This document shows, one piece after another, positions 2,147 through 47,911 of a stretch of DNA of 64,000 bases (position 1 is its first letter; each line of letters opens with the position of its first letter). This stretch comes from a bacterium (GTDB lineage Bacteria; UBP6; UBA1177; G963667425), in the NCBI GenBank assembly GCA_963667425.1, contig OY763407.1, forward strand, positions 1,930,281 to 1,994,280, written 5' to 3'. The translations under genes and the position numbers were made by a program. The notes below the pieces were generated by a model, which made no database searches, was not told the DNA's origin, and was given only the letters and a program-made list of their open reading frames with translations.

Positions 2147-3010
2147 ATGAAATTACAAATTTATGTTATTTTTTCACTTCTATGCTTAATAACAATGGTA
2201 TCATGTTCCGATGACTGCAACTGTAAAACATGTCAGTCATGTAATGATTCCGACTGCACTTTGAATGACGCTGACACAGAAAATGACACCGAAACAGAAG
2301 ATGCAGACAGCGATACCGAGTTCGTTGAAGATGAAAATTCAGACAGCGACACCGAAATTGTATGTACTGAAATTACAATTAAAGAACTATTTCTTGATGG
2401 CGAAGAAACATCGACAAATTACTATGGTATCATAAATGAAAGTCTCGGCAGCGCAGACAAATGGGATGGAATACTTCTTCAGTTTTATTTATCTGAAAAT
2501 GAAACTCTCAAGACAGGCACATACGACCTTGGAACTGAACAAAATATAAGTTTTGCACAGTGCACGGAATGTCTTTTTATTGTTGAAGACTATGATGAGG
2601 AAAGCGAACTTCCTGCAAAATTCTATTTTCAGGAAACAGGAACACTAAATGTAACTGAAATAAAAGAAGGAACAGGAGAATCAAAAGGAATTATGAACGC
2701 AAAACTTGTTGAAGTTTTCCTGAATGCAGTAACAATGGATACAGTTAAAGTTGAAGGCGGAGCCTGCCTTGAATTAAAGAATCAGGAATGGAACACCATC
2801 TGCACACCTCAATGTGAAGGAAAAGTCTGCGGTTCTGATGGATGTTATGGAGAATGCGGCGAATGCGGCGAAAACGAAACATGCAGTGAAGACGGCACAA
2901 CATGTGAAACTTCAACAGATACGGATATTGATGAAGATATGGAAACTGACATAGACGAAATTTATACCGATGATGACACATTGGTCATTACAGATGAAGA
3001 TTCTATCTAG
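2147..3010 (+). CDS. Cys-rich acidic secreted lipoprotein (hypothetical)
   Basis: Signal peptide plus lipobox (LITMVSC), then an acidic stretch (DTENDTETEDADSDTEF) and a C-terminal Cys cluster (CTPQCEGKVCGSDGCYGECGECG). No recognisable catalytic motif. Confidence 0.6.
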   Translation: MKLQIYVIFSLLCLITMVSCSDDCNCKTCQSCNDSDCTLNDADTENDTETEDADSDTEFVEDENSDSDTEIVCTEITIKELFLDGEETSTNYYGIINESLGSADKWDGILLQFYLSENETLKTGTYDLGTEQNISFAQCTECLFIVEDYDEESELPAKFYFQETGTLNVTEIKEGTGESKGIMNAKLVEVFLNAVTMDTVKVEGGACLELKNQEWNTICTPQCEGKVCGSDGCYGECGECGENETCSEDGTTCETSTDTDIDEDMETDIDEIYTDDDTLVITDEDSI

Positions 3011-3013
3011 TAT

Positions 3014-4816
3014 TTAGCTTCCCGCAAGCGTAGTCGCAAGAATAATAAAGACACCGGCAAGACTTTCACCAGCAATAATTCCCGAAGCGGCAGGAATGAT
3101 ATATTCAGAAAGAGCTGCTCTCTTTTTCTCGATAATAAGAACAATAAGTGCTCCGATAAACATTGAAAGACAGTTCCAGAACGGAATTACGAAAGCAAGT
3201 CCGATTCCCATTGATGACGGGATAAACTTTGATGCTTTCGGAAAATATTTTTCAAGCAGAGGAATAATAACGCCGACAGCCACACCGGCAATCATTGCTA
3301 TTTTAGCAGTATAATGAAGTGAACCGATCCCCTGACCCAGAAGTTTTGCAACACCTGCCCAAACCTGAGCAGCCGGCGCAGGAAAGTAATCGCTCCCAAG
3401 CACATCAGGAGTCGGAACAATAAGATAAAAAGCAGGAACGATAACAGCTGTTCCGGCAAAAATACCTATAAACTGTGCAATAAACATTTTTCTTGAATTT
3501 GCGCCTAAAAGATAGCCTGTTTTAAGGTCAGTTAGAAGATCAGCTGAAGAACCGGCAATACCGGAAGTAACTGAAGCAGTCATAAGGGTTGTAACCATGC
3601 TTCCCGGTCTTATCATTCCGTAAAAAGCCTGCGTAACCTGACCAAGTGCGCCAACCGGCGTTGTATCCGTCTCACCAGTTGCACGACATGCAACGATGGC
3701 AAGAAAAAATGAAAGAACAATCGCAAGAGCCGATACCCATACTGCAATATCAAAAACGTAGTACATAATAAAAGCAATACCAGCGCCGCCAATTAAAATT
3801 CCCCAGAAAAACCAGCTCATAGGAACTTCAACTTTTTCAATTGCAGTAAGCTCTCTTTTTTCTCTTGAGAAAATATCTTTTACACCTGAAAACGCTTTAA
3901 GAGCAACCTTCCACTGCATAAAAAATGAAGTGAAACCTGCCGCAACCATTACAGAAGCACCAAACCATAAACTCCAGCGGCTGATTCCCTTGTAACCGAG
4001 TTCTGTTATGACTCCTGCATCAAAAAGCTGAGGCGCAAGAATGATATAGTTGAGAATTCCGCCAAAAAGTATACTCCATGCTGTTCTCCAGCCCATAAGA
4101 GCACCCGCAGCAACCATAATAAGACTTGTTTCCATCGAAACAGTGTAAGCTCCAAGCTTTTCGCCAAAAATAGAGTAAGTATACTTTATCCATTCAAAAA
4201 AATCTCTCACAACTGTCAGAAGAGCTCCCAGAAGAGCAAAGATAAGGAGTGAATTAGTCTGCTTTCTGCTCTCTTCGCCGGCATAAAGGCTTTTTAAAGT
4301 CTCAGCCGTTGCAGTTCCTGAAGGAAACGGAAGCTTTTCAATATTAATCATCTGCTTTTTCATTGGAATTGCCATAACAACGCCGGCAATACCTAAAAAA
4401 ACAGTCCATCCGATAAGCACCCAGAATCCGAGATGATGACCTGTAATAATAATGTAGGCGGCAATTGCGCTAACCATCGTTCCGCCAGTCGTGTAACCTG
4501 CGGAAGATGCAGTTGACTTCATCGAATTATTTTCAAGCAGCGTCATATCGGTTCTTATAAACCACGGGAAAAGTTTTCTAAGAAGTTTCCATATACTGAA
4601 GGAAAGAACACATGCGGTAATTGTAACACCAAGACCCCAGCCGGTTTTAAGTCCGATATAAAGATTTGTGAGACTCATAAAACCGCCGATTATCATTCCC
4701 ATGACAATCGCTCTGAAAGTCAGCTGTTTTACATCACCTTTGTAGACATTTTCAAGCCATAGTCTATCCGACTCCTCATGCGGATCGAGTATAGCTTCCT
4801 TTTTCTGCTCATCCAT
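3014..4816 (-). CDS. OPT-family oligopeptide transporter
   Basis: 600 aa, polytopic; N-terminal region (LTFRAIVMGMIIGGFMSLTNLYIGLKTGWGLGVTITACVLS) resembles the conserved start of bacterial OPT transporters. Confidence 0.65.
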   Translation of the reverse strand: MDEQKKEAILDPHEESDRLWLENVYKGDVKQLTFRAIVMGMIIGGFMSLTNLYIGLKTGWGLGVTITACVLSFSIWKLLRKLFPWFIRTDMTLLENNSMKSTASSAGYTTGGTMVSAIAAYIIITGHHLGFWVLIGWTVFLGIAGVVMAIPMKKQMINIEKLPFPSGTATAETLKSLYAGEESRKQTNSLLIFALLGALLTVVRDFFEWIKYTYSIFGEKLGAYTVSMETSLIMVAAGALMGWRTAWSILFGGILNYIILAPQLFDAGVITELGYKGISRWSLWFGASVMVAAGFTSFFMQWKVALKAFSGVKDIFSREKRELTAIEKVEVPMSWFFWGILIGGAGIAFIMYYVFDIAVWVSALAIVLSFFLAIVACRATGETDTTPVGALGQVTQAFYGMIRPGSMVTTLMTASVTSGIAGSSADLLTDLKTGYLLGANSRKMFIAQFIGIFAGTAVIVPAFYLIVPTPDVLGSDYFPAPAAQVWAGVAKLLGQGIGSLHYTAKIAMIAGVAVGVIIPLLEKYFPKASKFIPSSMGIGLAFVIPFWNCLSMFIGALIVLIIEKKRAALSEYIIPAASGIIAGESLAGVFIILATTLAGS

Positions 4817-4883: not shown

Positions 4884-7433
4884 TTATGGAAGTTCGTAGT
4901 AAATTTCTTTAGGAACATCAACTTTTTCAGCTAAACTTCCTGTTCCAAGTTTGCCGTACCCTCCATCTCCCCAGCAGTAAACTTTACCTTCCGTATCATA
5001 AGCACATGTGTGCTGAACTCCTGTAGTTATTCCTTCAAGTTTTTTTCCATTTAAAGCACCATTCATATTAACTGAAACAGGAACTGTACTGAAGTAATCA
5101 ATATCACCTTCTTTATGATTACCATTACCAAGCTCACCAGAATTTCCTGAGCCCCAGCAGTATGCCTTGCCATCATCATCAAGAGCACATGTGTAATAAT
5201 AACCTGTTGAAATTTTTATCAGTTTTTTTCCATTTAAAACACCGGAAGAATCCACTTCTATTGGCTCAAAAACATTATAATTACCCTCTTCTTCATTATA
5301 TCTCCCATCTCCTAAAGCACCATCTAGTCCACCGCCCCAACAATATGCTTTTCCTTCATCTGAAACTGCACAGGCATGCCCTCCGACGTGTGAATTTATT
5401 GCACTTATATCAACAATCTTTTTGTCTTTAAGAACTCCTGAATAGTTAATAGGTGCAGGCAGAAAATTACAATTGGATGTCGTTCCCATAACACCATAAC
5501 CAGCGCTTCCCCAACAATAGACTTTTCCATTAACATCAATAGCACAAGTATATCCTTGTCCAGCCGTTATCTTCACAAATCTTAATTCACCTGATTTAAC
5601 AGAAAGAGGTACTGCACTAATTCTATAAGACCCTGTTCCGAGCTGTCCTTTTCCCCAGCAGTAAGCTTCACCTCTGTCATCAAGAGCACATGCATGCCCC
5701 AGAGCGACAGCTAATTTAACAAGTTTCTTCCCTTTAAGAATGTCTGACGTATCAACAGCAACCGGTACAAGACTTGTTTCTTTTAAACCATTACCAAGCT
5801 CTCCATTTTCACCGTATCCCCAGCAATATGCTTTACCCTCATCATCCAGAGCACATGTATATCCATATGCGCCGCTTGTACCTCCTGCTGATTTTATCTC
5901 TACAATCTTTTTACAGTTTAAAACACCATAAGTATTAACCCTTTTGGGCAGCATTTCATAAGAAATTCCGTTTAAGACATCGAATCCTTCAACTCCATCA
6001 CCCAATTCTCCATATTCCTGACTTCCCCAGCAGTAAGCAGTTCCTTTATCATCCACAGCACATGTATGTTCTGAACCGGCAGAAAGAGAAATAACCTTTT
6101 TCCCATATAATTCACTTCTTCTATTTAAAAAAAGAGAATGTGGAGCTATTGCATCATTCACAGAGAAATCACCAATCTCACCTGAAATACCTTTTCCCCA
6201 GCAGTAAGCCCCGCCTTCACTGTCAAGAGCACATGTGTGATAGTTACCAGTTGTTATAAAGACAATATGTTTTTCTTTAAGAACGCCTTCAGAATAAACT
6301 GCTATGGGAGCATTACACAAATTACCATCACACTCCTCTTCCTTATCTTCACCATTCCCAAGTTCTCCATAAGAATCATCTCCCCAGCAGTAAATTTCCC
6401 CTTCATTATCAAGAATACATGAATGCCAGTATCCTGGAGCAAGAGAAACCCATTTCTTTTTCATATACGCAAGTTCATCAATCATATCAGAGTTGCCATA
6501 AGCTCGATAGTACCCATAAGCCCACCTATGAAGAACACCCTCAGTATCTATAGCACCGCGACTGGTTATGGAAACAAACTTTACATCACTCAAATTGTTA
6601 TTGACCTTTTCTGGAACAAGAGCATATTCATCACTTCTGTTACCATTTTCATCACACGAAGCATGACCCCAGCAATAACCTTTCCCGTCAGAATCAAGAG
6701 CACATGTGTTTGACTTATGGGCACTTATAAATGTAAAAGAAGTATTTTCAGGAAGCATTGACAAATCTACAGCCACAGGAACAGAACTGTCCTCTATCGT
6801 ACCGTTTCCAAGCTGACCTTCATCATTTTTTCCCCAGCAGTAGATGCCGCCACTATCATCAAGTGCACATGAATGATATTCTCCCGAAGTAAGTCCAACT
6901 ATTTTTTTATCTTTCATAATACCGTTCATATCAACATCAACAGGTACCATATTTTTTTCATTAGACCCATTACCGAGCTGTCCATATTCTCCCGAGCCCC
7001 AGCAATAAATTCTTCCAGCATCATCAAGAACACACGAGTGACTGTAACCAACAGTTAATATTTTTATTTCTCCCGCATTTCTTATATCAATTTTCTGAGG
7101 CGAAGCAGAATCGTAAAGTCCACCGAAACAGTAAACAGTATTTAATTCAGTAACCGCACAGGTTGCTCCATATGCACCAATCATTTTTATCTTTATTTTA
7201 TCTTCCTGAAAATCATCATCCGGCAGACATAATTCTGAAATATCAGGATTAGGGAAATTAAAATCTTCATCGGAAAAATCTTCATCAATCAGGTCAGCAT
7301 CAGCACTCTCAGCATTATCAGCATCAGATAAAATATCAGCATCATTGTTTTCAGAATAAACCGGATTGTTTTCCTTCGTACATGAAAGAAGATTTGAAAT
7401 TAAAAGTAATAAAACAATAAACATACTTTTCAT
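4884..7433 (-). CDS. RCC1-repeat (beta-propeller) lipoprotein
   Basis: Signal peptide plus lipobox (LLSC), acidic linker (DADILSDADNAESADADLIDEDFSDEDF), then about 13 repeats of the pattern G-x-x-H-[ST]-C-A-[LV]-D-x-x-G-x-x-Y-C-W-G-x-x-x-x-G-[EQ]-L-G-[ND]-G typical of RCC1 blades. Confidence 0.8.
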   Translation of the reverse strand: MKSMFIVLLLLISNLLSCTKENNPVYSENNDADILSDADNAESADADLIDEDFSDEDFNFPNPDISELCLPDDDFQEDKIKIKMIGAYGATCAVTELNTVYCFGGLYDSASPQKIDIRNAGEIKILTVGYSHSCVLDDAGRIYCWGSGEYGQLGNGSNEKNMVPVDVDMNGIMKDKKIVGLTSGEYHSCALDDSGGIYCWGKNDEGQLGNGTIEDSSVPVAVDLSMLPENTSFTFISAHKSNTCALDSDGKGYCWGHASCDENGNRSDEYALVPEKVNNNLSDVKFVSITSRGAIDTEGVLHRWAYGYYRAYGNSDMIDELAYMKKKWVSLAPGYWHSCILDNEGEIYCWGDDSYGELGNGEDKEEECDGNLCNAPIAVYSEGVLKEKHIVFITTGNYHTCALDSEGGAYCWGKGISGEIGDFSVNDAIAPHSLFLNRRSELYGKKVISLSAGSEHTCAVDDKGTAYCWGSQEYGELGDGVEGFDVLNGISYEMLPKRVNTYGVLNCKKIVEIKSAGGTSGAYGYTCALDDEGKAYCWGYGENGELGNGLKETSLVPVAVDTSDILKGKKLVKLAVALGHACALDDRGEAYCWGKGQLGTGSYRISAVPLSVKSGELRFVKITAGQGYTCAIDVNGKVYCWGSAGYGVMGTTSNCNFLPAPINYSGVLKDKKIVDISAINSHVGGHACAVSDEGKAYCWGGGLDGALGDGRYNEEEGNYNVFEPIEVDSSGVLNGKKLIKISTGYYYTCALDDDGKAYCWGSGNSGELGNGNHKEGDIDYFSTVPVSVNMNGALNGKKLEGITTGVQHTCAYDTEGKVYCWGDGGYGKLGTGSLAEKVDVPKEIYYELP

Positions 7434-7725
7434 TACTGACTCCTCAATAATTTTTTAACAAAAAGATATTATTTATCAAATACTTTAACATTTCATATTA
7501 CAACAACAAAGATTATCACTGAAATATTTTAAATCAAGAAACATTACAACATAATTTATAAATAAGATGCTCCAGACACTGTCAAAACTGTTTTTTCCTG
7601 CTGTTAATAACCTTGGGAGGAACAATTGCTCCTTATTGAGTGCCCATTCTCTCTTTGCGGATAGTGATTGATCCTTATTATGTAATGATTCTCACTTTTC
7701 TTGTTCTGTTTTTGTTACTGCGTGT

Positions 7726-8038
7726 AGTGATTGCAGTCAATTTTGGTCTGAACGCTCTCAATCATGGACTGAACGGACCAAATATTGGTCTCATCGTCTC
7801 CAATTTTGGTCTGATTGCCTCCAATTGACGAGTGATTACTCTCCATCGTGGTCTGAACGTTCACAATCATGGACTGAACGCACCAAATATTGGTCTAATC
7901 CTCTCCGATTTTGGTCTGATTGCACCCAATTGACGAGTGATTACTCTCCATCGTGGTCTGAACGCTCTCAATCATGGACTGAACGCGCCAAATATTGGTC
8001 TAATCTTCTCCAATTTTGGTCTGAGTGTTCTAAATTTT
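7726..8038. repeat. Tandem direct repeat, ~105-bp unit in ~3 copies, with an internal GGTCTGA-type core motif recurring about every 21-31 bp
   Basis: Near-identical units beginning GTGATT(GCAGTCAA/ACTCTCCATCGT)TTTTGGTCTGAACG...CAATCATGGACTGAACG...CCAAATATTGGTCT..ATC...TTTTGGTCTGATTGC..CCAATTGACGA at about 7726, 7832 and 7937. The array is intergenic, between the 3' end of the DUF3332 gene and the start of the RCC1 gene. Confidence 0.7.
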
Positions 8039-8068
8039 CAGGTAATTGCTAAATTATTCTGACTTTGT

Positions 8069-8491
8069 TTAATGATTTTCCTGGGCAAGTTCAACGATTG
8101 TCCATGAGCCTGCTGATGTTGAATATGCAACAACTTTCTGTTCGTCCGTTTCTTTGTCTTTTACTGTAAAGCCTTTGTTTGTAGCGGTCACTTCATAGAT
8201 TTTTCCGGCGTATTCTATCTCTTCGGTCTCACTTTCTCCGTCATTCATTGCCATAGGATTTTTCCCACCCCAGAATTCGATTACGTTCAAGACTAGAATG
8301 TCACCTGCTAAAGAAACTATATAGACCGGTATTATCCAGAATGCAAAGTGAACTGCCGAACGGGCATATTTGTTGTTTATTGTACCGTTCCACTTGTTCA
8401 TTCTGTTGAACATCTGATTTGAACCGAAGCATCCGCTTAGCATTACTGCTGCCATAAACATAAGAATTATGTTTCTTATTTGTTTTTTCAT
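8069..8491 (-). CDS. DUF3332-family lipoprotein
   Basis: Start placed at the internal Met (MKKQIRNIILMFMAAVMLSGCFGSN...) whose ATG overlaps the MATE stop in an ATGA arrangement. Lipobox LSGC followed by the motif WIIPVYIVSLAGDILVLNVIEFWGGKNP characteristic of DUF3332. The longer 232-aa ORF would overlap the MATE gene. Confidence 0.6.
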   Translation of the reverse strand: MKKQIRNIILMFMAAVMLSGCFGSNQMFNRMNKWNGTINNKYARSAVHFAFWIIPVYIVSLAGDILVLNVIEFWGGKNPMAMNDGESETEEIEYAGKIYEVTATNKGFTVKDKETDEQKVVAYSTSAGSWTIVELAQENH

Positions 8492-9867
8492 ATTACTCTC
8501 CTTTTCCATTTGCCGCTTTTTAAAAAAGCGAGGGCTATTATAACTGTAAAGAAGTTTCCAAGTGTCATTCCGATCCATGCTCCGCCGGATCCGTATCCTA
8601 AAAATATGCCGAGAAGATAAACTAACGGCAGTCTGAATATCCATAGTCTGAAGATTCCGAGTATTAATACCGGCATGTTTACGCCTGCGGCACTGAATGT
8701 GGCGTTTACAGATCTGAGTATTCCGAATAATGGTATTGCCGAGCCGAAATATAGAAGGAATCTGCATCCTTCTTCTATTATGTCAGGTTCATCAGGGATA
8801 AATACCGAAACTAGTTCTCTTCTGAAAAAAACCATCAGCGCTGTTTCGGCCAGCAGGACTACAAACATTGTGAGCATCCCTTCTTTTACCGATTTTGCTG
8901 CCGATTTTATCATGTCTGCGCCAAGTTTCTGTCCTATGATTGTGGTCAGTGACTGCGCGAATCCCATCATTGCAATTGATGCAAGGCTTATAAGTCTGCT
9001 TCCTATTCCGTAAGCCGCCAGGGCTGTTCTTGAATTGTCGAGCTGTCCTATTATAAAAGATAGAATTACAAATCCTAATGCTTCGGCTGAGTGTCCGACT
9101 GCTGCCGGGAAACCTACTTTTACAACTTTTTTTATCCACAAAAGGTCAGGTACCATGTTTTTCAGGTTTATGCTGATTCCTTTTTTTCCTTCAAAGAGAT
9201 AGTAAACTGCAACGAGCGCCGAAAATACGCCTGAGATTACTGTTGCTATTGCGGCTCCTTTAACGCCCATTGCCGGTATAGGTCCGATTCCTGTTATAAA
9301 GAAGGGATCGAGTATTACATTTATGATGTTGCTTATAATTGTGATTACCATTGGGGTAAAACTGTTCCCTGTTGATGTGAGCAGCGAACGGAAAACTCCG
9401 TTGATGAACATAAACGGCAGCCCAACAGCCAGAACTGTTATGTATTCGGACGAAGCTTTAAGTATGGCGGCATCTGAGGTAACAAAGCTTAAAACTTTTC
9501 CTCCTGCAATAAAAAGAAGTGCCGATGAAACGACTCCACTTATTAATGCAAGCGATAAAACTTGTGCGCCTGCTTTATCTGCTTCATCAATTCTCCCTGC
9601 TCCGTTAAACTGGCTTACAAATGCTACACCAGCCATCGAGAATCCCATTATAAATGCAACAAGAAACCATATTATCGGAAAACTTATCTGAAGTGCGGCA
9701 ACGGAATTGCCTCCTTCTCCTCCTGAAAGCCTGCCAAGCCAGAAAGTATCAACAAGCTGATAAACTGTGTCGAGAAGGCTTGCCAGCATTATCGGCCAGC
9801 CTAGTTTCAAGAGCAGTTTGGGCGTGCTTAAAGAGAGTATTTCTTCTGTGGATATTTTTTTTTTCAT
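8488..9867 (-). CDS. MATE-family multidrug/efflux transporter
   Basis: 459 aa, about 12 TM helices; N-terminus (LLKLGWPIMLASLLDTVYQLVDTFWLGRL) is typical of NorM/DinF-type MATE proteins. Confidence 0.8.
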   Translation of the reverse strand: MKKKISTEEILSLSTPKLLLKLGWPIMLASLLDTVYQLVDTFWLGRLSGGEGGNSVAALQISFPIIWFLVAFIMGFSMAGVAFVSQFNGAGRIDEADKAGAQVLSLALISGVVSSALLFIAGGKVLSFVTSDAAILKASSEYITVLAVGLPFMFINGVFRSLLTSTGNSFTPMVITIISNIINVILDPFFITGIGPIPAMGVKGAAIATVISGVFSALVAVYYLFEGKKGISINLKNMVPDLLWIKKVVKVGFPAAVGHSAEALGFVILSFIIGQLDNSRTALAAYGIGSRLISLASIAMMGFAQSLTTIIGQKLGADMIKSAAKSVKEGMLTMFVVLLAETALMVFFRRELVSVFIPDEPDIIEEGCRFLLYFGSAIPLFGILRSVNATFSAAGVNMPVLILGIFRLWIFRLPLVYLLGIFLGYGSGGAWIGMTLGNFFTVIIALAFLKSGKWKRRVI

Positions 9868-10348: not shown

Positions 10349-10538
10349 ATGAAAAAACCTTAAAAATTAACCGGAAGAATAATATTCATAGAGGTAAAAA
10401 TTACAATTTTTTATAGTTATATAGGGCATTTTCAGAATTTTGTCCTTAAATAGAATCAATCTATTTTAAAATAATTGAGATTTTTTTTAAAACTTTGTAC
10501 AATCGACAAGGTTTTTGCTTTATGGAGGTACTTTTAAA

Positions 10539-11420
10539 ATGAAAAAATCAACTATTATTGCATTACTGCTTATTATTCTTGCTATTCCGGTTTTGTTTTT
10601 TTCAAGAAAGGTCATGATAGAATCTCCAAGAGAAGAGATAGAAACTATTGATTCTCTGCCTGAACCTGAATTTGCAAAAATAATGTTTCTTGGCTTTGAT
10701 GCTCTTGCTGCAGATTTTCTTTACACAAGACTTCAGTATTATTTTGGCGGTCATTATATAACAGATCACTCTTTTCCTCTTATGGAAAGATGGGTCGGAG
10801 TTGTTATGGCTCTTAATCCGACACTTAAGTTCATTATAAGGTTTGGAGACTCGGTTTTATCGTCAATCAGCAGCGATGGAGAAGAAGCAGTACTTGCCGC
10901 AAACAGAATACTTGATTTGGGTCACAAACTTTATCCTGATGATTACGAATTTGTATTTAGAAAAGGCTACAATTATTTCTATGCGCTTAAAGATATGAAA
11001 AAAGCTTATCCCCTTATGTATGAAGGGTCAAGAATGAAGGGCGCTCCCGAAAATCTTTTCTGGCTTGTAACACAGGTGACATTTAAAGGGGGCGATTATA
11101 AATTGGGTCTTACTTTTGCCAAACAGCGTTACGATAATGAAAAAGATCCTAAAATGAAAGAGGCTTTTTTAACAAGAATTAAATTTTTCTCAAATCTGAT
11201 TGCTCTTACCGATGCAGTTCAGGAATATGAGAACAAAACCGGCAAAACTCCCGATAAGGATCTTAAATCACTTATAACTTCAGGCATAATCAAGGAAATA
11301 CCGGAGCATCCTTACGGTGGTTCATACTTTTATGACGAGAAGGACGGCAAAGTTAAATCAACTGAAGATTTTTATATAAGAAAAAATAAAAAAACAGCAT
11401 CGGAAGGTAAAAATGGCTGA
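10539..11420 (+). CDS. Hypothetical exported protein
   Basis: ATG at 10539 preceded by GGAGG (track start is an upstream TTG). N-terminal signal/TM segment (MKKSTIIALLLIILAIPVLFF). No recognisable motif. Overlaps the Hsp20 start by 8 nt. Confidence 0.5.
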   Translation: MKKSTIIALLLIILAIPVLFFSRKVMIESPREEIETIDSLPEPEFAKIMFLGFDALAADFLYTRLQYYFGGHYITDHSFPLMERWVGVVMALNPTLKFIIRFGDSVLSSISSDGEEAVLAANRILDLGHKLYPDDYEFVFRKGYNYFYALKDMKKAYPLMYEGSRMKGAPENLFWLVTQVTFKGGDYKLGLTFAKQRYDNEKDPKMKEAFLTRIKFFSNLIALTDAVQEYENKTGKTPDKDLKSLITSGIIKEIPEHPYGGSYFYDEKDGKVKSTEDFYIRKNKKTASEGKNG

Positions 11421-17799: not shown

Positions 17800-18615
17800 T
17801 TGAAAAAAATTAAAGCTATTCTCTCTCTCTACAGAAAAGATGTTTTTTCTGTAATCTTTGTTGTTTCGGTTATCGGTTTTTATGTTTCATATAAAGCTGT
17901 AAACTTGCAGTTTATATTAAAAGCTCTTTTCATAGCTGGTGTTTTATATAATTTTGTATATAGTGCAAATTCTATTTCAGATATAAGGGAAGATACGCTT
18001 AATAATAAGAAAAAGCCTTTAGTTACGGGTGCTCTTTCAGTTAAAACAGCGTATGTTTATTCATTTATTTTGATCATGGCATCCACACTGTTTTCTCCAT
18101 TTCTGTTTAACGGCTGGAATCTGCTTGCAGCTTATCTTGTTATTTTGATGGGGATTTTATATTCTTTTGGTAAAAATCCTCTTAAAAACAGACCTTTTTT
18201 GGCACCAATAGTTACTGGATGGGGAATTGTAAATCCACTTTTTATAACAGGAACTTCAGAAATCTTACCAATTGTTCCGGGGGCACTCCTCTTTACGATA
18301 GGAACAACGCTTTTAAAAGATTTGGCAGATAAAGAAGGCGACACTATTGCAGGAAGAAAAACAATAGCCACACTCTTTACAGCAAGAGATGTTACTAAAA
18401 TTACTTTTATACTTACGACAATAGCAACCATACTGATACTTTTTCAGAAATACTGGCAGGTAATGGTCATTCCTCTTTTTATAGCAGTAACTACTCTTAT
18501 TCATTTAATAAGGCATAACGACAGATACATTTCAAAAAATGTGTATAGGGATTCGAGACATATAACAATGCTATCTACTGTGATAACGTTACTGCTTATT
18601 ATCTTTTTTAATTAA
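17800..18615 (+). CDS. UbiA-family membrane prenyltransferase
   Basis: TTG start 3 nt after the MoxR stop. First Asp-rich motif (NSISDIREDTLNNKKKPLVTGALS) and second (KDLADKEGDTIAGRKT) typical of UbiA prenyltransferases; about 8 TM helices. Confidence 0.6.
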   Translation: MKKIKAILSLYRKDVFSVIFVVSVIGFYVSYKAVNLQFILKALFIAGVLYNFVYSANSISDIREDTLNNKKKPLVTGALSVKTAYVYSFILIMASTLFSPFLFNGWNLLAAYLVILMGILYSFGKNPLKNRPFLAPIVTGWGIVNPLFITGTSEILPIVPGALLFTIGTTLLKDLADKEGDTIAGRKTIATLFTARDVTKITFILTTIATILILFQKYWQVMVIPLFIAVTTLIHLIRHNDRYISKNVYRDSRHITMLSTVITLLLIIFFN

Positions 18616-19560
18616 TATATCATATATTTTTACAGAAACGCTATTTTCTTCATCATTGATAGAGAGAGCTTTAACTTCTTTTTCTCCTAAAAACGAAATA
18701 TTCATTCCAGTCATTGAGTCTATTTCTACAGGAAATCCAAGATCTTTTTGAACGTAAGTATGGGAATTCTGAGAAAAATATGTAAAGAAAGCATCTTCTT
18801 TTTTCACATAGAATATTGAGAAAGGAGCTTTTTCTGCATTAATGTAACTGGAAATGAAGTGCTGCTGATTCTTTTTACTATTAAGAGCATAAAGATTTAT
18901 CTGAATTCTGTTACCTCTGGGCATGATTGTGGAGAAAAGAATGCTGTCATCAACACACTGAATATTAAAGGGTGTCTCATCTGCGAGCATATCAAGTTTT
19001 AAAAGATATTCAGGATCTTTTGTTCTTTCTGCAATAGATCTGAGTTTTGCCATATATTCCACTTCGGCATCACTGTAATTTTTTGATGTTCCAATGAAAT
19101 AATTATCCCAGAAACTAAAATTAAGATCTGTTTTTGAAATGAAATATTTATTATTATCTTTCTCTTCCGATTTAAAAAGAAACCAGAGATTTTTATCTGA
19201 AAAAGATGAATCGAGAACAGAAACATTAGAAGGAAGTGTATAAGTGTTTTTTAAGGAATCTTTTTCAAAAATAAAAAGTTTAATTCCGGTATAACCCATA
19301 TTTTTGGAAACGACAATATCTCCATCAGTACTGACATAAAGGGGCGTTTGTCCTAAATGATTAAAAGGAAGGTCTTTTATTTCATTATCAGCAAAATAAG
19401 CCCACTTTTCAGATGAATACTGAACAATTTTAAAAATATTGTCAGAAAAAAGAGAAACACTGCAATCTTCGCCATTACATAAAATATCAGAAGAATATTC
19501 CTTGTTGCAGGAAAAGAAAAGAAATGTTATGAAAAGTATTAAGGTAATATATCGGAACAA
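18589..19560 (-). CDS. Hypothetical lipoprotein
   Basis: TTG start; signal peptide plus lipobox (FLFFSCNKEY). Begins 2 nt after the stop of the upstream ER/K-rich gene. Confidence 0.5.
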   Translation of the reverse strand: MFRYITLILFITFLFFSCNKEYSSDILCNGEDCSVSLFSDNIFKIVQYSSEKWAYFADNEIKDLPFNHLGQTPLYVSTDGDIVVSKNMGYTGIKLFIFEKDSLKNTYTLPSNVSVLDSSFSDKNLWFLFKSEEKDNNKYFISKTDLNFSFWDNYFIGTSKNYSDAEVEYMAKLRSIAERTKDPEYLLKLDMLADETPFNIQCVDDSILFSTIMPRGNRIQINLYALNSKKNQQHFISSYINAEKAPFSIFYVKKEDAFFTYFSQNSHTYVQKDLGFPVEIDSMTGMNISFLGEKEVKALSINDEENSVSVKIYDILIKKDNKQ

Positions 19561-19564: not shown

Positions 19565-21043
19565 CTATTCCAGTTCTTTCAAGGTTTTTTCTGCTTTTTT
19601 GTAAGTATCATTATCTGCATTTACAAGCTTAAGAATAGATCTTAAAAGCTCTTTTGCTTTTGTAGGATTAAAATTCTTAGTTACATTAGCCTTTGAGTAA
19701 AGCTTTTTAACCAATTCATCCTTACTGTCAAGCCATTCCTGACATTCTGATTTATCCGGATCTTTATCTATACATTTTTCATAATTTTCATTTGCTGCAA
19801 CATAGTCATCCTTCTTTTCCATAGCAAGAGCTTTTGCATAGTAACCTATCGCATAAACTTTATCTACACTTTGAGAGAAGTTTGTACCGCCATCAACAAT
19901 TTCCTTATCAAGAGAAACAGCTGCTTCAAGATTGTCCAGGATAAGGTTATGATTTAAAAGTTTTATACCTTCAACAATTTTTGAACGAACTTTGTTAAAA
20001 GCCATAAGCTGTGTTTTAAGCGCAAGAACTTTTGCATCTTCTTCACATTCACATTTATATTTCTCAACTTTAAGAATCATTCTGATAGCATCATTGTATT
20101 TTCCTTCAGAACACATATCTATAACTTTATTTCTTGCAGATTCGAGCTTGGAAGCATTCGTCTTAAGCTGTCCTTCTTTATTTTTTGCTTTCTGTGAACG
20201 TTCCATTTCTCTCTGACGTCTTTCATTCTCAAGACGTTCCATCTCATCCTGTCTTCTTTTACGTTCAACATTTGCTTTTCTTTTTACTTCTTCTCTTTCT
20301 CTTCTTTTCTTTTCTTCTTCTATTCTACGCTGTTGTTCAAGCTCTCTTCTACGAGTTTCTTTTTCTTCAGCGATTTTTCTTTCTCTTTCTTCTTCTTTTC
20401 TTCTCTCAATTTCTTCACGTTTTTGTCTTTCTGCTTCTCTTTTCTGTTTAAGCTCGTCTTCTCTTTTCTGTCTGTCACGTTCTTCCTGAAGTCTTTTTTC
20501 TTCACGTTCTCTTCTTTCTCTTTCCATTGAAGAATTTCTTGAACTTGAACGATCATTACTTCTAGCTCCAGCTTTTACTTCATCATAAACACTTGAAAGT
20601 GCACTTTTAGAGAGTTTCCACAAAGCTGCGGCTGAAATATCTTTTGCTCGACCAAAAGAGTTACTCGAAGAACCAATAATTTCTTCATCAAGAAGACTTA
20701 TTGCTATCATTTTCACAAGCATTTCATCGTTATCGTCAATTTTTACTGACGTAAGAACAGCATAGTCAAATCCTGCCCTTTCCGCTGCATCAGCATTCTC
20801 ACCCCAACAGAATTCATCACTGCCACAAGAAGCAACCTTTTGAGCAAGAGACCTGTTTGATGAAAGAAGATCATCATACGAGATGAAATTAAACTTCTTC
20901 TTAAAAACAGTATAGAGATTTTTGTCAATTTTCTTTGCATCACTTCTGTTAATATCTTTCGTAACTGGAGACATTAAAAGAACCTTTCCTGCAAAAAGTG
21001 GCAACGTAACCAATAAAACTATAAGGACTAAATACCTTTTCAC
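19565..21043 (-). CDS. Exported protein with ~125-aa E/R/K-rich predicted single alpha-helix and a C-terminal helical (TPR-like) domain
   Basis: GTG start with AGGAGG 5 nt upstream; signal peptide (MKRYLVLIVLLVTLPLFAG); central low-complexity ERREREEKRLQEERDRQKRE... region; C-terminal helical region. Hypothetical. Confidence 0.55.
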   Translation of the reverse strand: MKRYLVLIVLLVTLPLFAGKVLLMSPVTKDINRSDAKKIDKNLYTVFKKKFNFISYDDLLSSNRSLAQKVASCGSDEFCWGENADAAERAGFDYAVLTSVKIDDNDEMLVKMIAISLLDEEIIGSSSNSFGRAKDISAAALWKLSKSALSSVYDEVKAGARSNDRSSSRNSSMERERREREEKRLQEERDRQKREDELKQKREAERQKREEIERRKEEERERKIAEEKETRRRELEQQRRIEEEKKRREREEVKRKANVERKRRQDEMERLENERRQREMERSQKAKNKEGQLKTNASKLESARNKVIDMCSEGKYNDAIRMILKVEKYKCECEEDAKVLALKTQLMAFNKVRSKIVEGIKLLNHNLILDNLEAAVSLDKEIVDGGTNFSQSVDKVYAIGYYAKALAMEKKDDYVAANENYEKCIDKDPDKSECQEWLDSKDELVKKLYSKANVTKNFNPTKAKELLRSILKLVNADNDTYKKAEKTLKELE

Positions 21044-22676: not shown

Positions 22677-23399
22677 TTATTTTGAAATAGGCTGAAAAGA
22701 AAGCTTAAATGAATTCACACTGTCAATATCATCACAATCAATATCAATATAACCTTCCCGAAAAAACCATGTTGGAATAGGTGGATCAAGATAAAACTCA
22801 ATAGCTGTATCATCACCTAACAGATCATGATCAACAATATCAAAAGAAAGTTTATCATTTTTAGTTAAGGATAAAAGTGTGTTACTTACAAAATCAGCAC
22901 AGTATGAATCAGCCTCTTCCTCTGTCTGGAAAACGAAGTTATCATTTAACAAGACTTTTACGTAAAGATCGGGTGCATGACAATATGCTGCAATGCATTC
23001 AGGGCTTGGATCCCATTCCACATCCTCAGAAACACATGTCGAAATTTTGGAAACAAGCCAGTTAACCTCAAAAGGACTCACACATTCCGATTCGTAACAT
23101 ATTTCATCATCAGCACACTCAGTATGTTCACGGCAACCTTCAAAAGTATCAATATCCGGTTCATTTTCAACAAGATCTTCATCTGGTTCATCAGGAATAA
23201 TCTCTTCAGGAGTTTCAATGGCAACACATTTAGTATCTTTGCATTCATAGCCTGTTTCACAATCCTGAGAAATAAGACATTCAGGTTCACCAATTGAATC
23301 ATCAACTGATTCGCCAGCATTATCATCTCCATCACTTCCACAGGAAACAAAAACAATTAAAAAAGAAAATATAGAAAGAAACCATAGGAAAAATTTCAT
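22677..23399 (-). CDS. Cys-rich acidic lipoprotein (paralog of 23420..24118)
   Basis: Lipobox (VFVSCGSDGDD); two C-x-x-x-x-D-C-x-x-G-Y-x-C-type modules (CLISQDCETGYECKDTKCV; CREHTECADDEICYESECV) and a ~120-aa C-terminal domain. Confidence 0.6.
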   Translation of the reverse strand: MKFFLWFLSIFSFLIVFVSCGSDGDDNAGESVDDSIGEPECLISQDCETGYECKDTKCVAIETPEEIIPDEPDEDLVENEPDIDTFEGCREHTECADDEICYESECVSPFEVNWLVSKISTCVSEDVEWDPSPECIAAYCHAPDLYVKVLLNDNFVFQTEEEADSYCADFVSNTLLSLTKNDKLSFDIVDHDLLGDDTAIEFYLDPPIPTWFFREGYIDIDCDDIDSVNSFKLSFQPISK

Positions 23400-39987: not shown

Positions 39988-42057
39988 TTAACCGTAAATA
40001 CGTTCTCTAATTTTCGCAGGAACTTCACCATATTTTGCAAACTGCATGGTAAAGACACCTCTTCCCTGAGTTTTAGATCTTAGATCCGTGGAATACCCAA
40101 ACATCTCAGAAAGAGGAACCAGGGATTTAACAGTTCTAGCACCTGAATTTTCATCATCTTCCATACCAAGTACAGTTCCTCTTCTACTCTGAATATCAGA
40201 AAGAACATCTCCGGTATAGTCTTCAGGGATAGTAACATCAACACCCATAAGAGGTTCAAGAAGTATTACACCTGCTTTTTCTTCGGCCTTTTTAAAACAC
40301 TGAATAGCAGCAATTTTAAATGCTGTATCAGAAGAGTCAACTTCATGGGCCGAACCATCAACCAGTGTAGCTTTTACATCAACAACAGGATATCCATGCA
40401 CGCCGCTTGCAGCAGCAGCTTTTATTCCATATTCAACAGAAGAAATAAATTCTCCAGGAATAGCACCACCCTTGATTTTGTTTTCAAAAACAACACCACC
40501 GTTTTCATTAGGTTCGAATTCAATAACGACATTAGCAAACTGACCTTTACCACCAGTCTGTTTCTGATGTTTGTATGCAAAAGAAATTGGCCCGGCAAAT
40601 TTTTCTCTGTAACTTACCTGGGGACGTCCAACATTTGCGTCAACTTTAAATTCTCTCCTAAGTCTTTCAACCAATATTTCAAGATGAAGCTCTCCCATGC
40701 CAGAAATTATAGTCTGACCAGTTTCTTCATCAGTCTTTACTTTAAAACTAGGATCCTCCTTTGCCAGTTTTCCCAAAGACATTGACAGTCTATCACTATC
40801 AACCTTAGTCTTGGGTTCTATAGCAACATGAATAACAGGTTCAGGAAACTGCATTGACTCAAGAACGAACTGGTCGTTCTTTGTACACAGTGTCGAACCA
40901 GTAATAGCATACTTAAGGCCCACAACAGCACCAATATTACCCGAACTGATGACATCAGTCTCTTCTCTTTTATTAGCATGCATTCTTAAGAGACGGCCAA
41001 TTCTTTCAGCCTTACCGGCAGACGAATTGTAAACCATATCTCCAGATTTAAGTTCGCCTGAGTAAACTCTTACAAACGCCAGCTCACCAACAAAAGGATC
41101 TGTCATAATTTTAAAAACAAGAGCACTAAGTCTTGGATCTTCAGAAGAAATCTCAACTTCACGCTCTCTGTCATCATGGGCAATTACAGGAGGTATATCC
41201 ATAGGAGAAGGCATATAATCAACTATCGCATCAAGCAAAAGCTGTACACCTTTATTTTTAAAAGCCGTACCACAACAAACAGGAAAGAATCCTGTTGTAA
41301 GAACAGCCTTTCTTATAACTTTTTTTATTTCAGAAACAGAGATATCTTCACCTGAAAGATATTTCTCCATAAATTCTTCATCATAATCTGATAAAGACTC
41401 TAAAAGAGTTTCTCTTTTTTCAGAAGCATAATCTTCCATATCTGCAGGAACACCTTCTTCAACTCTATAAGTAGAACCGAGAGCATCTTCATCATAGTAA
41501 CATGTTCTCCACTCAACGAGATCTATTATAGCTCTAAAAGTATCTTCCGCACCAATAGGCAACTGAATTGCAACAGCATTTGCTCCCAAACGAGTCTTCA
41601 TCTGTTTAAGAACGTTTTCAAAATTAGCTCCAATTCTGTCCATTTTATTAACAAACGCAAGCCTTGGAACTTTATATTTATTTGCCTGACGCCAAACAGT
41701 TTCAGACTGAGGCTGAACACCTCCAACGGCACAGAAAACAGCAACCGCGCTATCAAGAACTCTAAGAGAACGTTCCACTTCCGCTGTAAAATCAACGTGT
41801 CCAGGAGTATCAATAATATTAATTCTCTTTTCTCTCCAATAGCACGTAGTAGCAGCAGAAGTTATTGTAATACCTCTCTCCTGCTCCTGCTCCATCCAAT
41901 CCATAACCGCAGTACCTTCATGAACCTCACCCAACTTATGAGAAACACCAGTATAGAACAGTATTCTTTCAGTAGTAGTAGTCTTGCCGGCATCGATGTG
42001 CGCCATAATTCCAATATTTCTAATCTCACTTAGAGGCAGTGTTTTTACTGCAGCCAT
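39988..42057 (-). CDS. fusA: Elongation factor G
   Basis: [26 protein letters not shown]-motifs; 689 aa with the EF-G domain order. Confidence 0.98.
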
Positions 42058-43521: not shown

Positions 43522-45960
43522 ATGAAAAGTATTTACCGCAAAAATAATAAGATTATTTTTATATTGTTTATTCTAATTGCGGTCATTACATTTATCTTTA
43601 TTGTATTTATGCATGAAAGCAAACTAAAAGAAGAAGTATCTGATACTATCAAAAAACATGCCAATGTTATAAAAACATCTTTATGGACTTATGAAAAAAA
43701 TGCTCATGTATCATATCTTGAACTTGCAATGAAGTCCAACAATTATGACGAACTGACGGTTTTTGATGATATGGGAAAAGTCTTTATTCAGTTGAAATCT
43801 GAAAAGCCATCTTTTTTAAAAGAATTTTTAATGTCTATTGGAATTATAAGTATAGAAAAAATAAAAACAGATATTATTTATGAGTCAAAAAAAGTAGGTG
43901 AACTTCAAATATTATGGAGAAATGAATCAGTTTTTTTCTATGCCTATATAGTTTTGTTTATCTCTCTTATTTTTCTGGCATTCTGGCTTTTTATGAGACT
44001 TTCTATAATTAACAGCTCCCTGTTAGTCCAATCGGAATTATTAAAAAAAGCTAAGAATACTGCGGAAGAAGCAAGTAAATCAAAAAGCTCATTTCTTGCC
44101 AATATGAGTCATGAAATACGAACACCTATGAATGCAATCATTGGTCTTAATCATCTTATTTCAAAGACAGAATTAACCAAAAAACAGCGGGATTATTTTT
44201 CAAAACTTGAAAGTTCAAGTCAACATCTATTACAAATAATCAACAACATACTTGATTTTTCCAAAATAGAAGCTGATAAAATGGAACTTGAAAATTCAAA
44301 TTTCTCTCTTAGCGAAATTATGGAAAACATCAAAAGTGTTCTTATATACAGGATTGAACAAAAAGGACTGAATTTTAATATAAAAATAGATAAAAATGTT
44401 CATGATATTTTTAAAGGCGACTCGCTAAGGCTTACTCAGATTCTTACCAACCTACTCAATAATGCCATAAAATTCACTGAGACTGGTAGTATTACAATTG
44501 AAATTAAAGAAAAAATCCTTGATTCCAACCATGCAGAACTGAAATTTTCTATAAAAGATTCAGGAATTGGAATTGATGCTGAAGGGCAGAAACACCTTTT
44601 TACCCCATTTGAACAGACAGATTCTTCAACAACACGAAAATATGGAGGAACAGGATTAGGACTAAGCATATGTAAAAGGCTTGTGGAAATGATGGGGGGA
44701 AATATCTCGGTTGACAGTTTTCCTGGAGTAGGATCTACATTTCATTTTATCATAATTTGCGAACAGATTTCTTTAGGCGTACTTCCCCCTGACATTTCTG
44801 ATAGCTTTGCACTTATTGTCGAAGATAACTATGCAGCACAAAACACACTTGGATCAATGCTTAAAGAGTTGACAATAAATTATGACGTGGCAATAAGCGG
44901 AGAAAGTGCATTGGAAATTCTTCTTGAAAATCCTGAAAAATACAAATTTTTGTTTCTGGACTGGCAGCTACCCGGCATGGATGGATTCAGCATGATAAGA
45001 GAACTGCGTAATAATAGTAAAATCTCAGAACCAATTACTTTTATAACAACAGCATATGGTACTTCAGAAGTTATACAACAGGCTAAAAATTTGAACACTG
45101 CGGGATTGCTCATAAAGCCTTTTTCGAAAGAAATAGTTATAGAATCAATAATATCAGCATTAGCGGCTTTTAAAAATGAAACATCAAAAAGTAATAAAAA
45201 ACCATCTGAACAGAAATCTTTAAATATAGACATTCTGCTTGCTGAAGATAATGCTATAAATCAACAGGTTCTTACAGAAATCTTAAAAGATTATGGATGT
45301 AATTCAACTGTAGCGGAAAATGGAAAAATTGCTGTAGAAAAAGCAACAAGTTACAAATATGATTTAATCATCATGGATCTTCAGATGCCTGTAATGGACG
45401 GTTTCGAAGCCACAGAACGGATAAGAAAACATGAAACAAGTCTTGGATATAGAACACATATAATTGCAATGAGTGCAAGTATTCTCAAAGATGATATGGA
45501 AAAAGCAAAACTTGCCGGAGTTGATGAGTACATAACAAAACCAGTAGACCCTAACAACTTATTTAATGTTTTAAATAAAATTTCACAAAACATTAAAAAG
45601 GAACTTTTTTCATCAAGTCAGGCAAAGTCTGTAAATATAGAAAAAGGTCTTGAAATAGTTATGGGAAATAAAAAACTGTACTACAAACTTCTCAATCAGT
45701 TTCATGAGCAACATAGAGATTCCGGCATTAGGTTAAATGCTGCCTTGAGAACAAAAGATTATGATGCTGCCAGAAAAATAGCTCATACAATTGCGGGAGT
45801 ATCATCAAATCTTGGTGCTGTAGATCTTTTTCAGACAGCTGTAAATCTGGAAATGGCTTTATATAAAAAACAGAGCGATGTGGAATTGATTGCCAGAAAA
45901 TTTCATCATGAACTTAACAAAACCATGGCTGAGATATTGATTTTAAATCAGACATTATAA
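43522..45960 (+). CDS. Hybrid sensor histidine kinase with two receiver domains and a C-terminal Hpt domain
   Basis: N-terminal TM helices flanking a ~120-aa extracytoplasmic segment; HisKA H-box (SHEIRTPMNAIIGL); HATPase_c (GTGLGLSICKRLVEMMGG); two REC domains with conserved Asp (FLDWQLPGMDG; IIMDLQMPVMDG); Hpt helix (AHTIAGVSSNLGA). Confidence 0.85.
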   Translation: MKSIYRKNNKIIFILFILIAVITFIFIVFMHESKLKEEVSDTIKKHANVIKTSLWTYEKNAHVSYLELAMKSNNYDELTVFDDMGKVFIQLKSEKPSFLKEFLMSIGIISIEKIKTDIIYESKKVGELQILWRNESVFFYAYIVLFISLIFLAFWLFMRLSIINSSLLVQSELLKKAKNTAEEASKSKSSFLANMSHEIRTPMNAIIGLNHLISKTELTKKQRDYFSKLESSSQHLLQIINNILDFSKIEADKMELENSNFSLSEIMENIKSVLIYRIEQKGLNFNIKIDKNVHDIFKGDSLRLTQILTNLLNNAIKFTETGSITIEIKEKILDSNHAELKFSIKDSGIGIDAEGQKHLFTPFEQTDSSTTRKYGGTGLGLSICKRLVEMMGGNISVDSFPGVGSTFHFIIICEQISLGVLPPDISDSFALIVEDNYAAQNTLGSMLKELTINYDVAISGESALEILLENPEKYKFLFLDWQLPGMDGFSMIRELRNNSKISEPITFITTAYGTSEVIQQAKNLNTAGLLIKPFSKEIVIESIISALAAFKNETSKSNKKPSEQKSLNIDILLAEDNAINQQVLTEILKDYGCNSTVAENGKIAVEKATSYKYDLIIMDLQMPVMDGFEATERIRKHETSLGYRTHIIAMSASILKDDMEKAKLAGVDEYITKPVDPNNLFNVLNKISQNIKKELFSSSQAKSVNIEKGLEIVMGNKKLYYKLLNQFHEQHRDSGIRLNAALRTKDYDAARKIAHTIAGVSSNLGAVDLFQTAVNLEMALYKKQSDVELIARKFHHELNKTMAEILILNQTL

Positions 45961-46470
45961 TCCTGAAACAATAAGCCACTTTCCATTTTCCTTAACAAAC
46001 TGAATTTGATTAACATCATCCACACTGTACCATTTTGGTTTTTCTTCTTCAAGAATTGTTTTTCCATCAGGTCCGAGTCTGCTATCAGACTGAAATCTTA
46101 AATCATAATAGTAGTAAACCAGAGCAAAACCTTTATCAGCGTCAACAGTCATATCCTTTATGATTATTGAAATATTTATCTTAAGAATTTCAGCATATTT
46201 TTCAGATTTCATAAAAGCTACTATTCCATCATAATCTACATCATCTGCTGCAATATCGGTACCGTTTTTATCATAGTATGAATCAGAAATAAGAGTTATT
46301 ATTTTTGCCGAATCTTTAGTCTTAACTGCATTGACATATTCATCAAAAACCTTTAAAACCTCTTTGTTATCAGGAGTATCTTCAATATCTGTTCCTTTAA
46401 TTTTTGATGGAGAACATGAAGCAAAACTGATAATAAGCGTCAACAGAAGGAGCATAAGAATTTTTCTCAT
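45955..46470 (-). CDS. Lipoprotein, last gene of the gsp operon (possible accessory or pilotin-like factor)
   Basis: Signal peptide plus lipobox (ISFASCSPS); 171 aa; 4-nt overlap with the upstream gspN-like gene. Function unknown. Confidence 0.5.
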   Translation of the reverse strand: MRKILMLLLLTLIISFASCSPSKIKGTDIEDTPDNKEVLKVFDEYVNAVKTKDSAKIITLISDSYYDKNGTDIAADDVDYDGIVAFMKSEKYAEILKINISIIIKDMTVDADKGFALVYYYYDLRFQSDSRLGPDGKTILEEEKPKWYSVDDVNQIQFVKENGKWLIVSGL

Positions 46471-47375: not shown

Positions 47376-47911
47376 TCTACAGCATCTCCTTTAAGGGTCG
47401 CAACAACAATTGCCGTATCATAATTTCGCTTATCATATCTCTTTTTTATGGAAACAGACTCAACAAAAACAAAACGATTATCATTTTCTATTGAATATAG
47501 AAACGTCATCAGCTCAGGAAGAGGAACCGCTCTCAAGGAAAGTTCTATTCTTTCTATTTTTGTTTTCCCCTTTATTACCGGTTTTAATTCTTTTATTGTA
47601 CTTATTTCAATATTGACCGACTCTTTTATGCCGCTAATATATGAATTAAGATTAGTATGATTGTCAGCAAGCTTTTTATAGACTCTTTCTTCCGCTTCTT
47701 TTGAACGATTGTAAAGATTTTTATAACCTGCAATTTTCTGAAGCATTTTTGTTTTGCTCCTTGCATCTGAAGTTGCAGTTTCCAGAGTTGAATCCATAAT
47801 ATACCAAACGAACATGGTCATTATAAGAAACATTACAAGGACAAAAGCTCCGAGCAGACCTTTTTCACGTTGACTTAAAGATGAAATATAGTTAGTTATT
47901 TTATCTTTCAT
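47372..47911 (-). CDS. T2SS GspM-like bitopic membrane protein
   Basis: 179 aa, single N-terminal TM helix (LLGAFVLVMFLIMTMFVWYI); size and topology match GspM; overlaps neighbouring genes. Confidence 0.45.
   Translation of the reverse strand: MKDKITNYISSLSQREKGLLGAFVLVMFLIMTMFVWYIMDSTLETATSDARSKTKMLQKIAGYKNLYNRSKEAEERVYKKLADNHTNLNSYISGIKESVNIEISTIKELKPVIKGKTKIERIELSLRAVPLPELMTFLYSIENDNRFVFVESVSIKKRYDKRNYDTAIVVATLKGDAVE

Follow-up and report, generated by a model that had tools for sequence, protein, structure and literature searches.

A probable exported, lipid-anchored double RCC1 propeller with cysteine-paired blades from a poorly sampled bacterial lineage

We analysed a 64,000-nucleotide stretch of bacterial DNA (contig OY763407.1 of assembly GCA_963667425.1; hereafter the window), and in particular one gene on its minus strand at positions 4884–7433. 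This open reading frame (ORF) encodes 849 residues, exactly as an initial annotation made from the sequence had placed and sized it. It opens with an ATG at 7433–7431 and ends with a stop codon at 4884–4886, and a GAGGAG ribosome-binding site can be read from the sequence 6 nucleotides 5′ of the ATG. An identical protein, P0001, is present on a 2.95-Mb contig in NCBI/ENA. The ORF is a real gene, coding for an exported and probably lipid-anchored protein that carries two RCC1 propellers.

The initial annotation was right about the RCC1 repeats and short in its count of about 13: there are 14, in two sets of seven and with lengths of 42–69 residues, and the protein ends after repeat 14 without a further domain. 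Three Pfam models match above their cut-offs and far better than chance would allow: WD40_RLD (PF25390; 1.6e-128, 429.5 bits against 150), RCC1_2 (PF13540; 1.8e-88 over 11 stretches, 288.8 bits against 22) and RCC1 (PF00415; 9e-87 over 10 stretches, 286 bits against 21.7). Sequence matches in the PDB are UVR8 (1e-41), HERC2, RCC1, RPGR and, weakly, the ectodomain of the plant receptor ACR4 (7a0j; 1.3e-7), and the RCC1-like domain of HERC1 matches residues 584–835. The hallmark of a seven-bladed propeller, seven repeats of ~50–60 residues, is present.

Structure prediction agrees with these matches. An AlphaFold2 model built on a 40-sequence alignment has a mean predicted local distance difference test score (pLDDT) of 81.2 and a predicted TM-score of 0.62, with 449 residues at a pLDDT of at least 90 and about four strands per repeat; low-confidence regions are confined to the linker, an insertion after repeat 5 (residues 305–325, pLDDT <50) and a few loops. 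When the model was compared with the PDB by Foldseek, it matched UVR8 (5e-34) and gave TM-scores of 0.72–0.73 to single HERC2 RCC1-like domains. The predicted structure thus confirms the RCC1 beta-propeller fold that had been proposed. From the number of repeats (14) and the full-length matches to domains with seven blades, we infer that the repeats form two closed seven-bladed rings. The blades are old, judging by their divergence: mean core identity between blades is 40%, against 42% for repeat i versus repeat i+7, and on these values we rejected a recent amplification of blades or a duplication of a whole propeller. No other RCC1-type gene lies in the 64-kb window.

The same matches bear on a catalytic role, in which the propellers would catalyse, say, a lyase or hydrolase reaction through the central channel, as in other propeller families. 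All strong matches are to non-enzymatic RCC1-like domains; NCBIfam has no model for the 849-residue protein, and neither Pfam nor NCBIfam places it in an enzyme family. We know of no catalytic function for the RCC1-like fold, and we regard an enzyme here as extremely improbable.

The N-terminus, MKSMFIVLLLLISNLLSC, combines a single positive charge with a hydrophobic core and a lipobox: an M-K-S start is followed by MFIVLLLLISNLL and then by L-L-S-C18, which fits the pattern [LVI][ASTVIL][GAS]-C and makes Cys18 the predicted lipidated residue. In the model, residues 2–15 of the signal peptide form a helix. The lipobox cysteine lies in the same place in four close relatives (P0007, P0010, P0122 and P0123) and one column off in a fifth (P0073). 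Beyond it, residues 19–85 hold 22 Asp/Glu against 4 Lys/Arg (isoelectric point ~4.05), and residues 16–81 have a pLDDT below 50, which suggests that this stretch is a disordered tether; the closest relatives have Asp/Glu/Asn-rich linkers of varying length. An exported protein with an acidic linker behind a lipobox, in keeping with the initial annotation, is thus supported, with lipidation and signal-peptidase II cleavage at Cys18 predicted from the lipobox.

Two conserved cysteines had been reported for every repeat. This is true of 13 of the 14, in which the motif map places the two exactly 10 residues apart in a unit of the pattern H-[ST]-C-A-[LV]-D-x5-Y-C-W-G (repeat 1 reads C-F-G). In repeat 5 (...SRGAIDTEGVLHRWAY...) both positions are substituted, by G293 and R303, although the closest relatives keep HTCAID...YCWG at this repeat. 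There are 33 cysteines in total, one in the lipobox, 26 in pairs and six extra ones (69, 260, 368, 373, 507 and 655) that are not conserved in the nearest relatives. In the AlphaFold2 model, the cysteines of each of the 13 pairs lie on consecutive strands of one hairpin, for example C134 (strand 132–137) and C144 (strand 142–146). A register in which the two are direct cross-strand neighbours, joined by a three-residue D-x-G turn, would follow from this model.

A structural precedent for such pairing comes from plants. Each ‘crinkly’ repeat of the CRINKLY4/ACR4 ectodomain contains the motif C(x~10)CWG, and ACR4 crystals (7a0j, 7a0k) show an extracellular seven-bladed propeller with one disulfide per blade. 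The ACR4 sequence that we aligned was confirmed as 100% identical to 7a0j. In local alignment, both cysteine columns of the bacterial protein coincide with those of ACR4, whose turn has one extra residue. ACR4 also scores above threshold for Pfam RCC1_2; a 12-blade profile run against the PDB was dominated by HERC2 and UVR8, with ACR4 below threshold. The two proteins therefore share the motif, the cysteine columns and RCC1_2 membership, whereas the disulfide is proven for ACR4 only. ACR4, which also has a pore-filling N-terminal strand, differs in its compact ~39-residue blades and in its TNFR-like Cys-rich domain, transmembrane helix and kinase; the bacterial protein has larger repeats, nothing after the last one and a different anchor. 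Because of these differences in blade size, domain architecture and anchor, we regard it not as a member of the CR4 family but as a relative with the same staple.

If the two cysteines of a blade bond with each other, they should be gained and lost together, and this is the pattern that we observed. Both are missing from repeat 5 here, and joint loss also affects two other blades in P0073. A first blade hidden Markov model (HMM) that contained the cysteines was biased against Cys-less blades and was replaced by one with both cysteine columns masked, which gives Cys-neutral blade counts. Among 122 relatives from a word-index search (1950 blades), 1941 blades have both cysteines, 8 neither and 1 a single one; among 139 representatives from an exhaustive HMMER search, the counts are 1288, 2422 and 9. 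In proteins that mix blade types, 117 blades have both, 544 neither and 9 a single cysteine (Fisher p = 6e-120, a value inflated by the shared descent of the blades counted). Even so, the near-absence of single-Cys blades is clear. Together, the ACR4 columns, the placement on consecutive strands and the joint gain and loss strongly, if indirectly, support the proposed disulfide in each blade, and one disulfide per blade in 13 of the 14 blades is well supported by sequence comparison and the model.

These cysteines also bear on where the protein acts. If the signal peptide were misread, the gene could instead encode an RCC1-like regulator or guanine-nucleotide exchange factor of the cytoplasm, or an effector translocated in the manner of LegG1/PieG. 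The best-studied bacterial RCC1-repeat proteins, Legionella LegG1, PpgA and PieG, are effectors that are delivered by type IV secretion into the host cytosol and act on the Ran cycle, and the PDB proteins that match best are eukaryotic ones of the cytosol or nucleus. Yet the hydrophobic signal sequence and lipobox are conserved in relatives, the ribosome-binding site at the ORF start is a good one, and 26 strictly paired cysteines, coupled family-wide, would make no sense in a reducing cytoplasm. Unlike the Legionella effectors, as these are described as a family, the protein has a Sec/lipoprotein signal, and its cysteines suit an oxidising compartment. The eukaryotic RCC1, RCC2, UVR8, HERC1/2 and RPGR proteins likewise differ in being cytosolic or nuclear and without a signal peptide; in the PDB alignments, their RCC1-like domains have residues such as Ala/Ser/Thr and Gly/Ser/Thr at the two cysteine positions, and none of their roles (Ran exchange factor, UV-B sensing, ubiquitin-ligase scaffolds) has an equivalent in the envelope of a bacterium. 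Guanine-nucleotide exchange does not define the fold family and would not be expected of a protein with such an N-terminus. A cytoplasmic or effector role is, in our judgement, scarcely credible.

Bacterial RCC1 proteins had been described as uncommon, which proved mistaken. The exhaustive HMMER search, over 1.84 billion cluster representatives and with totals that include eukaryotic RCC1 proteins, found 164,204 representatives at E<=1e-3, 108,888 at <=1e-10 and 38,963 at <=1e-30; the word-index search found at least 7,684 proteins at E<=1e-10 among 8,000 scored candidates. COG5184 and RCC1_2 already cover the family, and JGI labels these proteins ‘alpha-tubulin suppressor-like RCC1 family protein’ (COG5184). 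Published work records that, of the highly repetitive propellers, those of the RCC1/BLIP-II type are mostly bacterial; it also records multiple copies in myxobacteria, an RCC1-like superfamily termed ‘pangenomic’, and giant extracellular RCC1 proteins as well as the Legionella effectors. The accompanying remark that such proteins are mostly unstudied holds up: the PDB matches from sequence, profile and Foldseek searches include no bacterial member with paired cysteines, and a literature search found no functional study of one.

Secreted COG5184/RCC1_2 proteins of bacteria share the H-T-C-A-L...Y-C-W-G repeat, have signal peptides or lipoboxes and blade numbers in multiples of seven (14, 21, 28), and are 30–41% identical to the protein over 80–100% of its length. 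Nearly all of the best 120 word-index matches have 12–27 C-x9-C-W-G pairs, with peaks at 14 and 21 blades, and the features of the Cys-paired RCC1_2 subgroup (C-x9-C-W-G, with the two cysteines jointly present or absent) are found in 13 of the 14 blades here. Of the 139 HMMER representatives, 52 have Cys-paired blades throughout, 68 have only Cys-less blades and 19 are mixed, a split that is not a family-wide proportion since these are the best-scoring and mostly very long proteins; whole proteins thus tend to be of one kind or the other. Some of the representatives (P0244–P0383) are giants, reaching 4,000–7,235 residues with up to 44 matched stretches. Paired cysteines are therefore, on sequence evidence, a hallmark of the family and not peculiar to this gene.

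The small subgroup to which the protein belongs has a lipobox, an acidic tether and exactly two propellers, without any additional domain. The protein’s nearest relatives, P0007/P0122, P0010/P0123, P0073 and L007, are 35–41% identical and have the same layout of lipobox, Asp/Glu/Asn-rich tether and 14 blades, so that even the nearest is only ~41% identical. A search of GTDB representative genomes with the protein yielded only a 35%-identical relative from Saccharibacteria. In other relatives, such propellers are joined to domains of the fibronectin-III, Ig-like/TIG and FG-GAP types. The double propellers P0027, P0045, P0056 and P0110 begin with a prepilin-type motif, G-F-T-[IL]-[IV]-E-L (Pfam N_methyl), and similar hydrophobic, pseudopilin-like N-termini are found in P0003, P0021, P0106 and P0116; one of these prepilin- or pseudopilin-type relatives comes from a metagenome-assembled genome of Patescibacteria. 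Such N-termini on Cys-paired double propellers suggest display on pilus-like fibres. The protein is thus an ordinary member of a large, little-studied bacterial family in which many thousands of proteins have the same design.

The gene’s surroundings are summarised with its parts in Table 1. Downstream, on the same strand and after a gap of 67 bp without a terminator-like hairpin, lies a gene for an OPT-family oligopeptide transporter, with which it may be co-transcribed. This arrangement would suit a two-gene uptake operon, in which the lipoprotein captures peptides or proteins and feeds them to the transporter. No OPT gene adjoins the relatives’ genes at any of six related loci checked: the P0007 and P0010 loci have a ~960-residue ankyrin-repeat protein and a DEAD-box helicase upstream and a PALP (pyridoxal-phosphate enzyme), an Rrf2 regulator and a radical SAM protein downstream, and those of P0073 and L007 have unrelated neighbours. 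We also know of no OPT transporter that needs a binding protein, and an uptake operon of this kind seems very improbable.

Table 1. Predicted parts of the RCC1-repeat gene and other features of the window (position 1 is the first letter of the window unless a related locus is named)
Feature	Position	Strand	Basis or remark
RCC1-repeat lipoprotein precursor, whole gene	4884–7433	-	849 residues; ORF list and translation
GAGGAG ribosome-binding site	7440–7445	-	Sequence inspection
Predicted signal peptide and lipobox, residues 1–18, MKSMFIVLLLLISNLLSC	7380–7433	-	Sequence pattern; model helix 2–15
Acidic, putatively disordered tether, residues 19–82	7188–7379	-	Composition, pLDDT, relatives
Propeller 1, RCC1 repeats 1–7, ~residues 83–440	6114–7187	-	Boundary approximate
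Propeller 1 Cys pairs			92/102, 134/144, 189/199, 244/254, 339/349, 401/411
Degenerate repeat 5, ~residues 286–325, then low-confidence insertion with short helix	6459–6578	-	Both Cys replaced (G293, R303)
Propeller 2, RCC1 repeats 8–14, ~residues 441–849	4887–6113	-	Pfam, motif map, model, HERC1 match
Propeller 2 Cys pairs			458/468, 527/537, 582/592, 630/640, 688/698, 749/759, 810/820
OPT-family oligopeptide transporter, downstream neighbour	3014–4816	-	Pfam OPT 1.1e-91
Array of 21-nucleotide units	7744–8024	-	Intergenic, upstream; read from 8023 to ~7730
ORF of 75 residues across the array	7825–8052	+	TTG start; probably not a gene
DUF3332 protein, ORF as listed	8069–8767	-	232 residues; true gene probably ~8069–8491
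MATE transporter	8488–9867	-	Overlapped by the listed DUF3332 ORF
EF-G	39988–42057	-	
Type II secretion cluster	~45955–58553	-	
Type II secretion, GspF	53111–54340	-	
Type II secretion, GspE ATPase	54340–56034	-	
Type II secretion, GspD-like secretin	56031–58553	-	
ORFs without Pfam family	223–1365, 2147–3010, 10515–11420, 18589–19560, 19565–21043, 22677–23399, 45955–47375, 47911–49329		
Neighbourhood shared by the loci of the two closest relatives, absent from the window	L002 1–11050; L005 1906–11032		

Upstream lie genes for a small DUF3332 protein and for a MATE transporter. The DUF3332 match is limited to residues 99–227 of the listed ORF, and an internal start, MKKQIRNIILMFMAAVMLSGC, at ~8491 would yield a small protein that begins right after the MATE stop and has a lipobox (LSGC) of its own; for these two reasons the true gene is probably the shorter one. 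Between it and the RCC1 gene, the intergenic region holds ~14 consecutive 21-nucleotide units with the consensus CAGACCAnnATTGGnGnnnnT, organised as 2.7 copies of a 105-nucleotide (5 x 21) higher-order repeat at 92% identity. No match to the array was found elsewhere in the window, in the related loci fetched or in a metagenome collection. Candidate explanations are a protein-binding array and a small RNA. An ORF on the other strand crosses it in heptads with Trp at every seventh residue (SWSERSQ SWTERTK YWSNPLR FWSDCTQ ...) and is probably a by-product of the 21-nucleotide periodicity rather than a gene.

Other genes in the window tell us about the host. A type II secretion cluster holds, besides the components in Table 1, GspK-like and GspM-like proteins and several neighbouring ORFs without a Pfam match; because the system includes a secretin, the host has an outer membrane and is diderm. 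Among 5.8 billion proteins, no full-length match to EF-G exceeds 68% identity, and the best ones come from metagenome-assembled genomes; this points to a poorly sampled, deep lineage. To judge from ORF sizes, small ORFs around EF-G (~25–42 kb) may be a ribosomal-protein cluster. At least eight ORFs of 171–492 residues have no Pfam family at E<=1e-3, and no tRNA or Rfam match was found in the 64 kb.

Bringing these observations together, we favour, with moderate confidence, a Sec-exported lipoprotein whose disulfide-stapled double propeller serves as a binding platform in the envelope or on the surface. The protein would be exported by the Sec pathway of a diderm bacterium and, after signal-peptidase II cleavage, would carry a lipid anchor on Cys18 (Lgt/LspA), and the acidic disordered tether of ~64 residues would hold the two seven-bladed propellers off the membrane. 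In every blade but repeat 5, the cysteine of the H-[ST]-C-A-[LV]-D strand would bond with that of the next, Y-C-W-G strand across the tight D-x-G turn, and periplasmic oxidation of these 13 hairpin disulfides would staple the blades and stabilise the propeller outside the cytoplasm, as in CRINKLY4/ACR4. The rigid propellers would then most likely serve as an adhesin or capture module whose ligand is a protein or a glycan. A binding role is suggested because the strong matches are non-enzymatic, because BLIP-II and ACR4 are extracellular binders or receptors, and because relatives are fused to surface-type domains; their FN3, TIG/Ig, FG-GAP or prepilin fusions are typical of surface structures. 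The initial suggestion of a surface adhesin or binding protein is accordingly reasonable by analogy. BLIP-II of Streptomyces exfoliatus (1jtd, 3qhy) serves here only as an example of a secreted protein binder: it is a single propeller of ~270 residues without a lipid anchor or the blade disulfide pattern, it is absent from the sequence-level PDB matches, and the protein studied here is not a BLIP-II.

The export signal and tether would also suit a periplasm-facing envelope scaffold or regulator, with its lipid in the inner membrane or in the outer membrane’s inner leaflet and its long tether reaching a partner. BamB, a propeller lipoprotein, and LpoB, a long-linker lipoprotein, are precedents for such a protein; the lipobox, the ~64-residue disordered linker and the diderm host all fit, and nothing in the sequence shows surface export. 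Many relatives have clearly extracellular architectures (pilin-like N-termini, FN3/Ig stalks, giant proteins), however, and no envelope-biogenesis genes adjoin the RCC1 gene. We consider a periplasmic scaffold possible, though rather unlikely.

Several points also weigh against the stapled binding platform that we favour. Support for the disulfides comes from homology and covariation rather than from S–S distances, and the covariation statistic carries the inflation given above. ACR4 with its cysteines mutated to alanine is still a functional receptor, so that blade disulfides may be stabilising and not essential. Position -4 of the lipobox is Asn, which is atypical and outside the usual PROSITE set. 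The divergence of the host lineage (nearest EF-G 68% identical) bears on both lipoprotein sorting rules and oxidation by Dsb or VKOR. Finally, the evidence of this analysis indicates no ligand, and the relatives’ loci offer no conserved neighbourhood that points to a pathway.

These results have implications for how the propeller staple is viewed. The locus itself contributes a further exported and uncharacterised RCC1-repeat protein, from a lineage that is poorly sampled, to a class of bacterial propellers that is very abundant, with about half of the 139 best, length-biased matches fully or partly Cys-paired. The paper that described the CRINKLY4 structure called the receptor kinases ‘plant-unique’ and their blade disulfides ‘unique’; the staple columns in tens of thousands of bacterial blades are the ACR4 columns, which calls for a small correction to the latter claim and matters to research on CRINKLY4 receptors and on propeller evolution. 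Both common descent and convergence with CRINKLY4 are compatible with this match. A bolder and, in our estimation, doubtful reading is that the C-x9-11-C-W-G blade is an ancient extracytoplasmic module, shared by descent between the bacterial family and the CRINKLY4 ectodomain; a more local variant would make the lipoprotein a capture partner of the OPT transporter. If the module were shared by descent, the bacterial proteins would be the counterpart of, or the gene-transfer source for, the crinkly repeats, and their ligands could hint at the ligand of ACR4.

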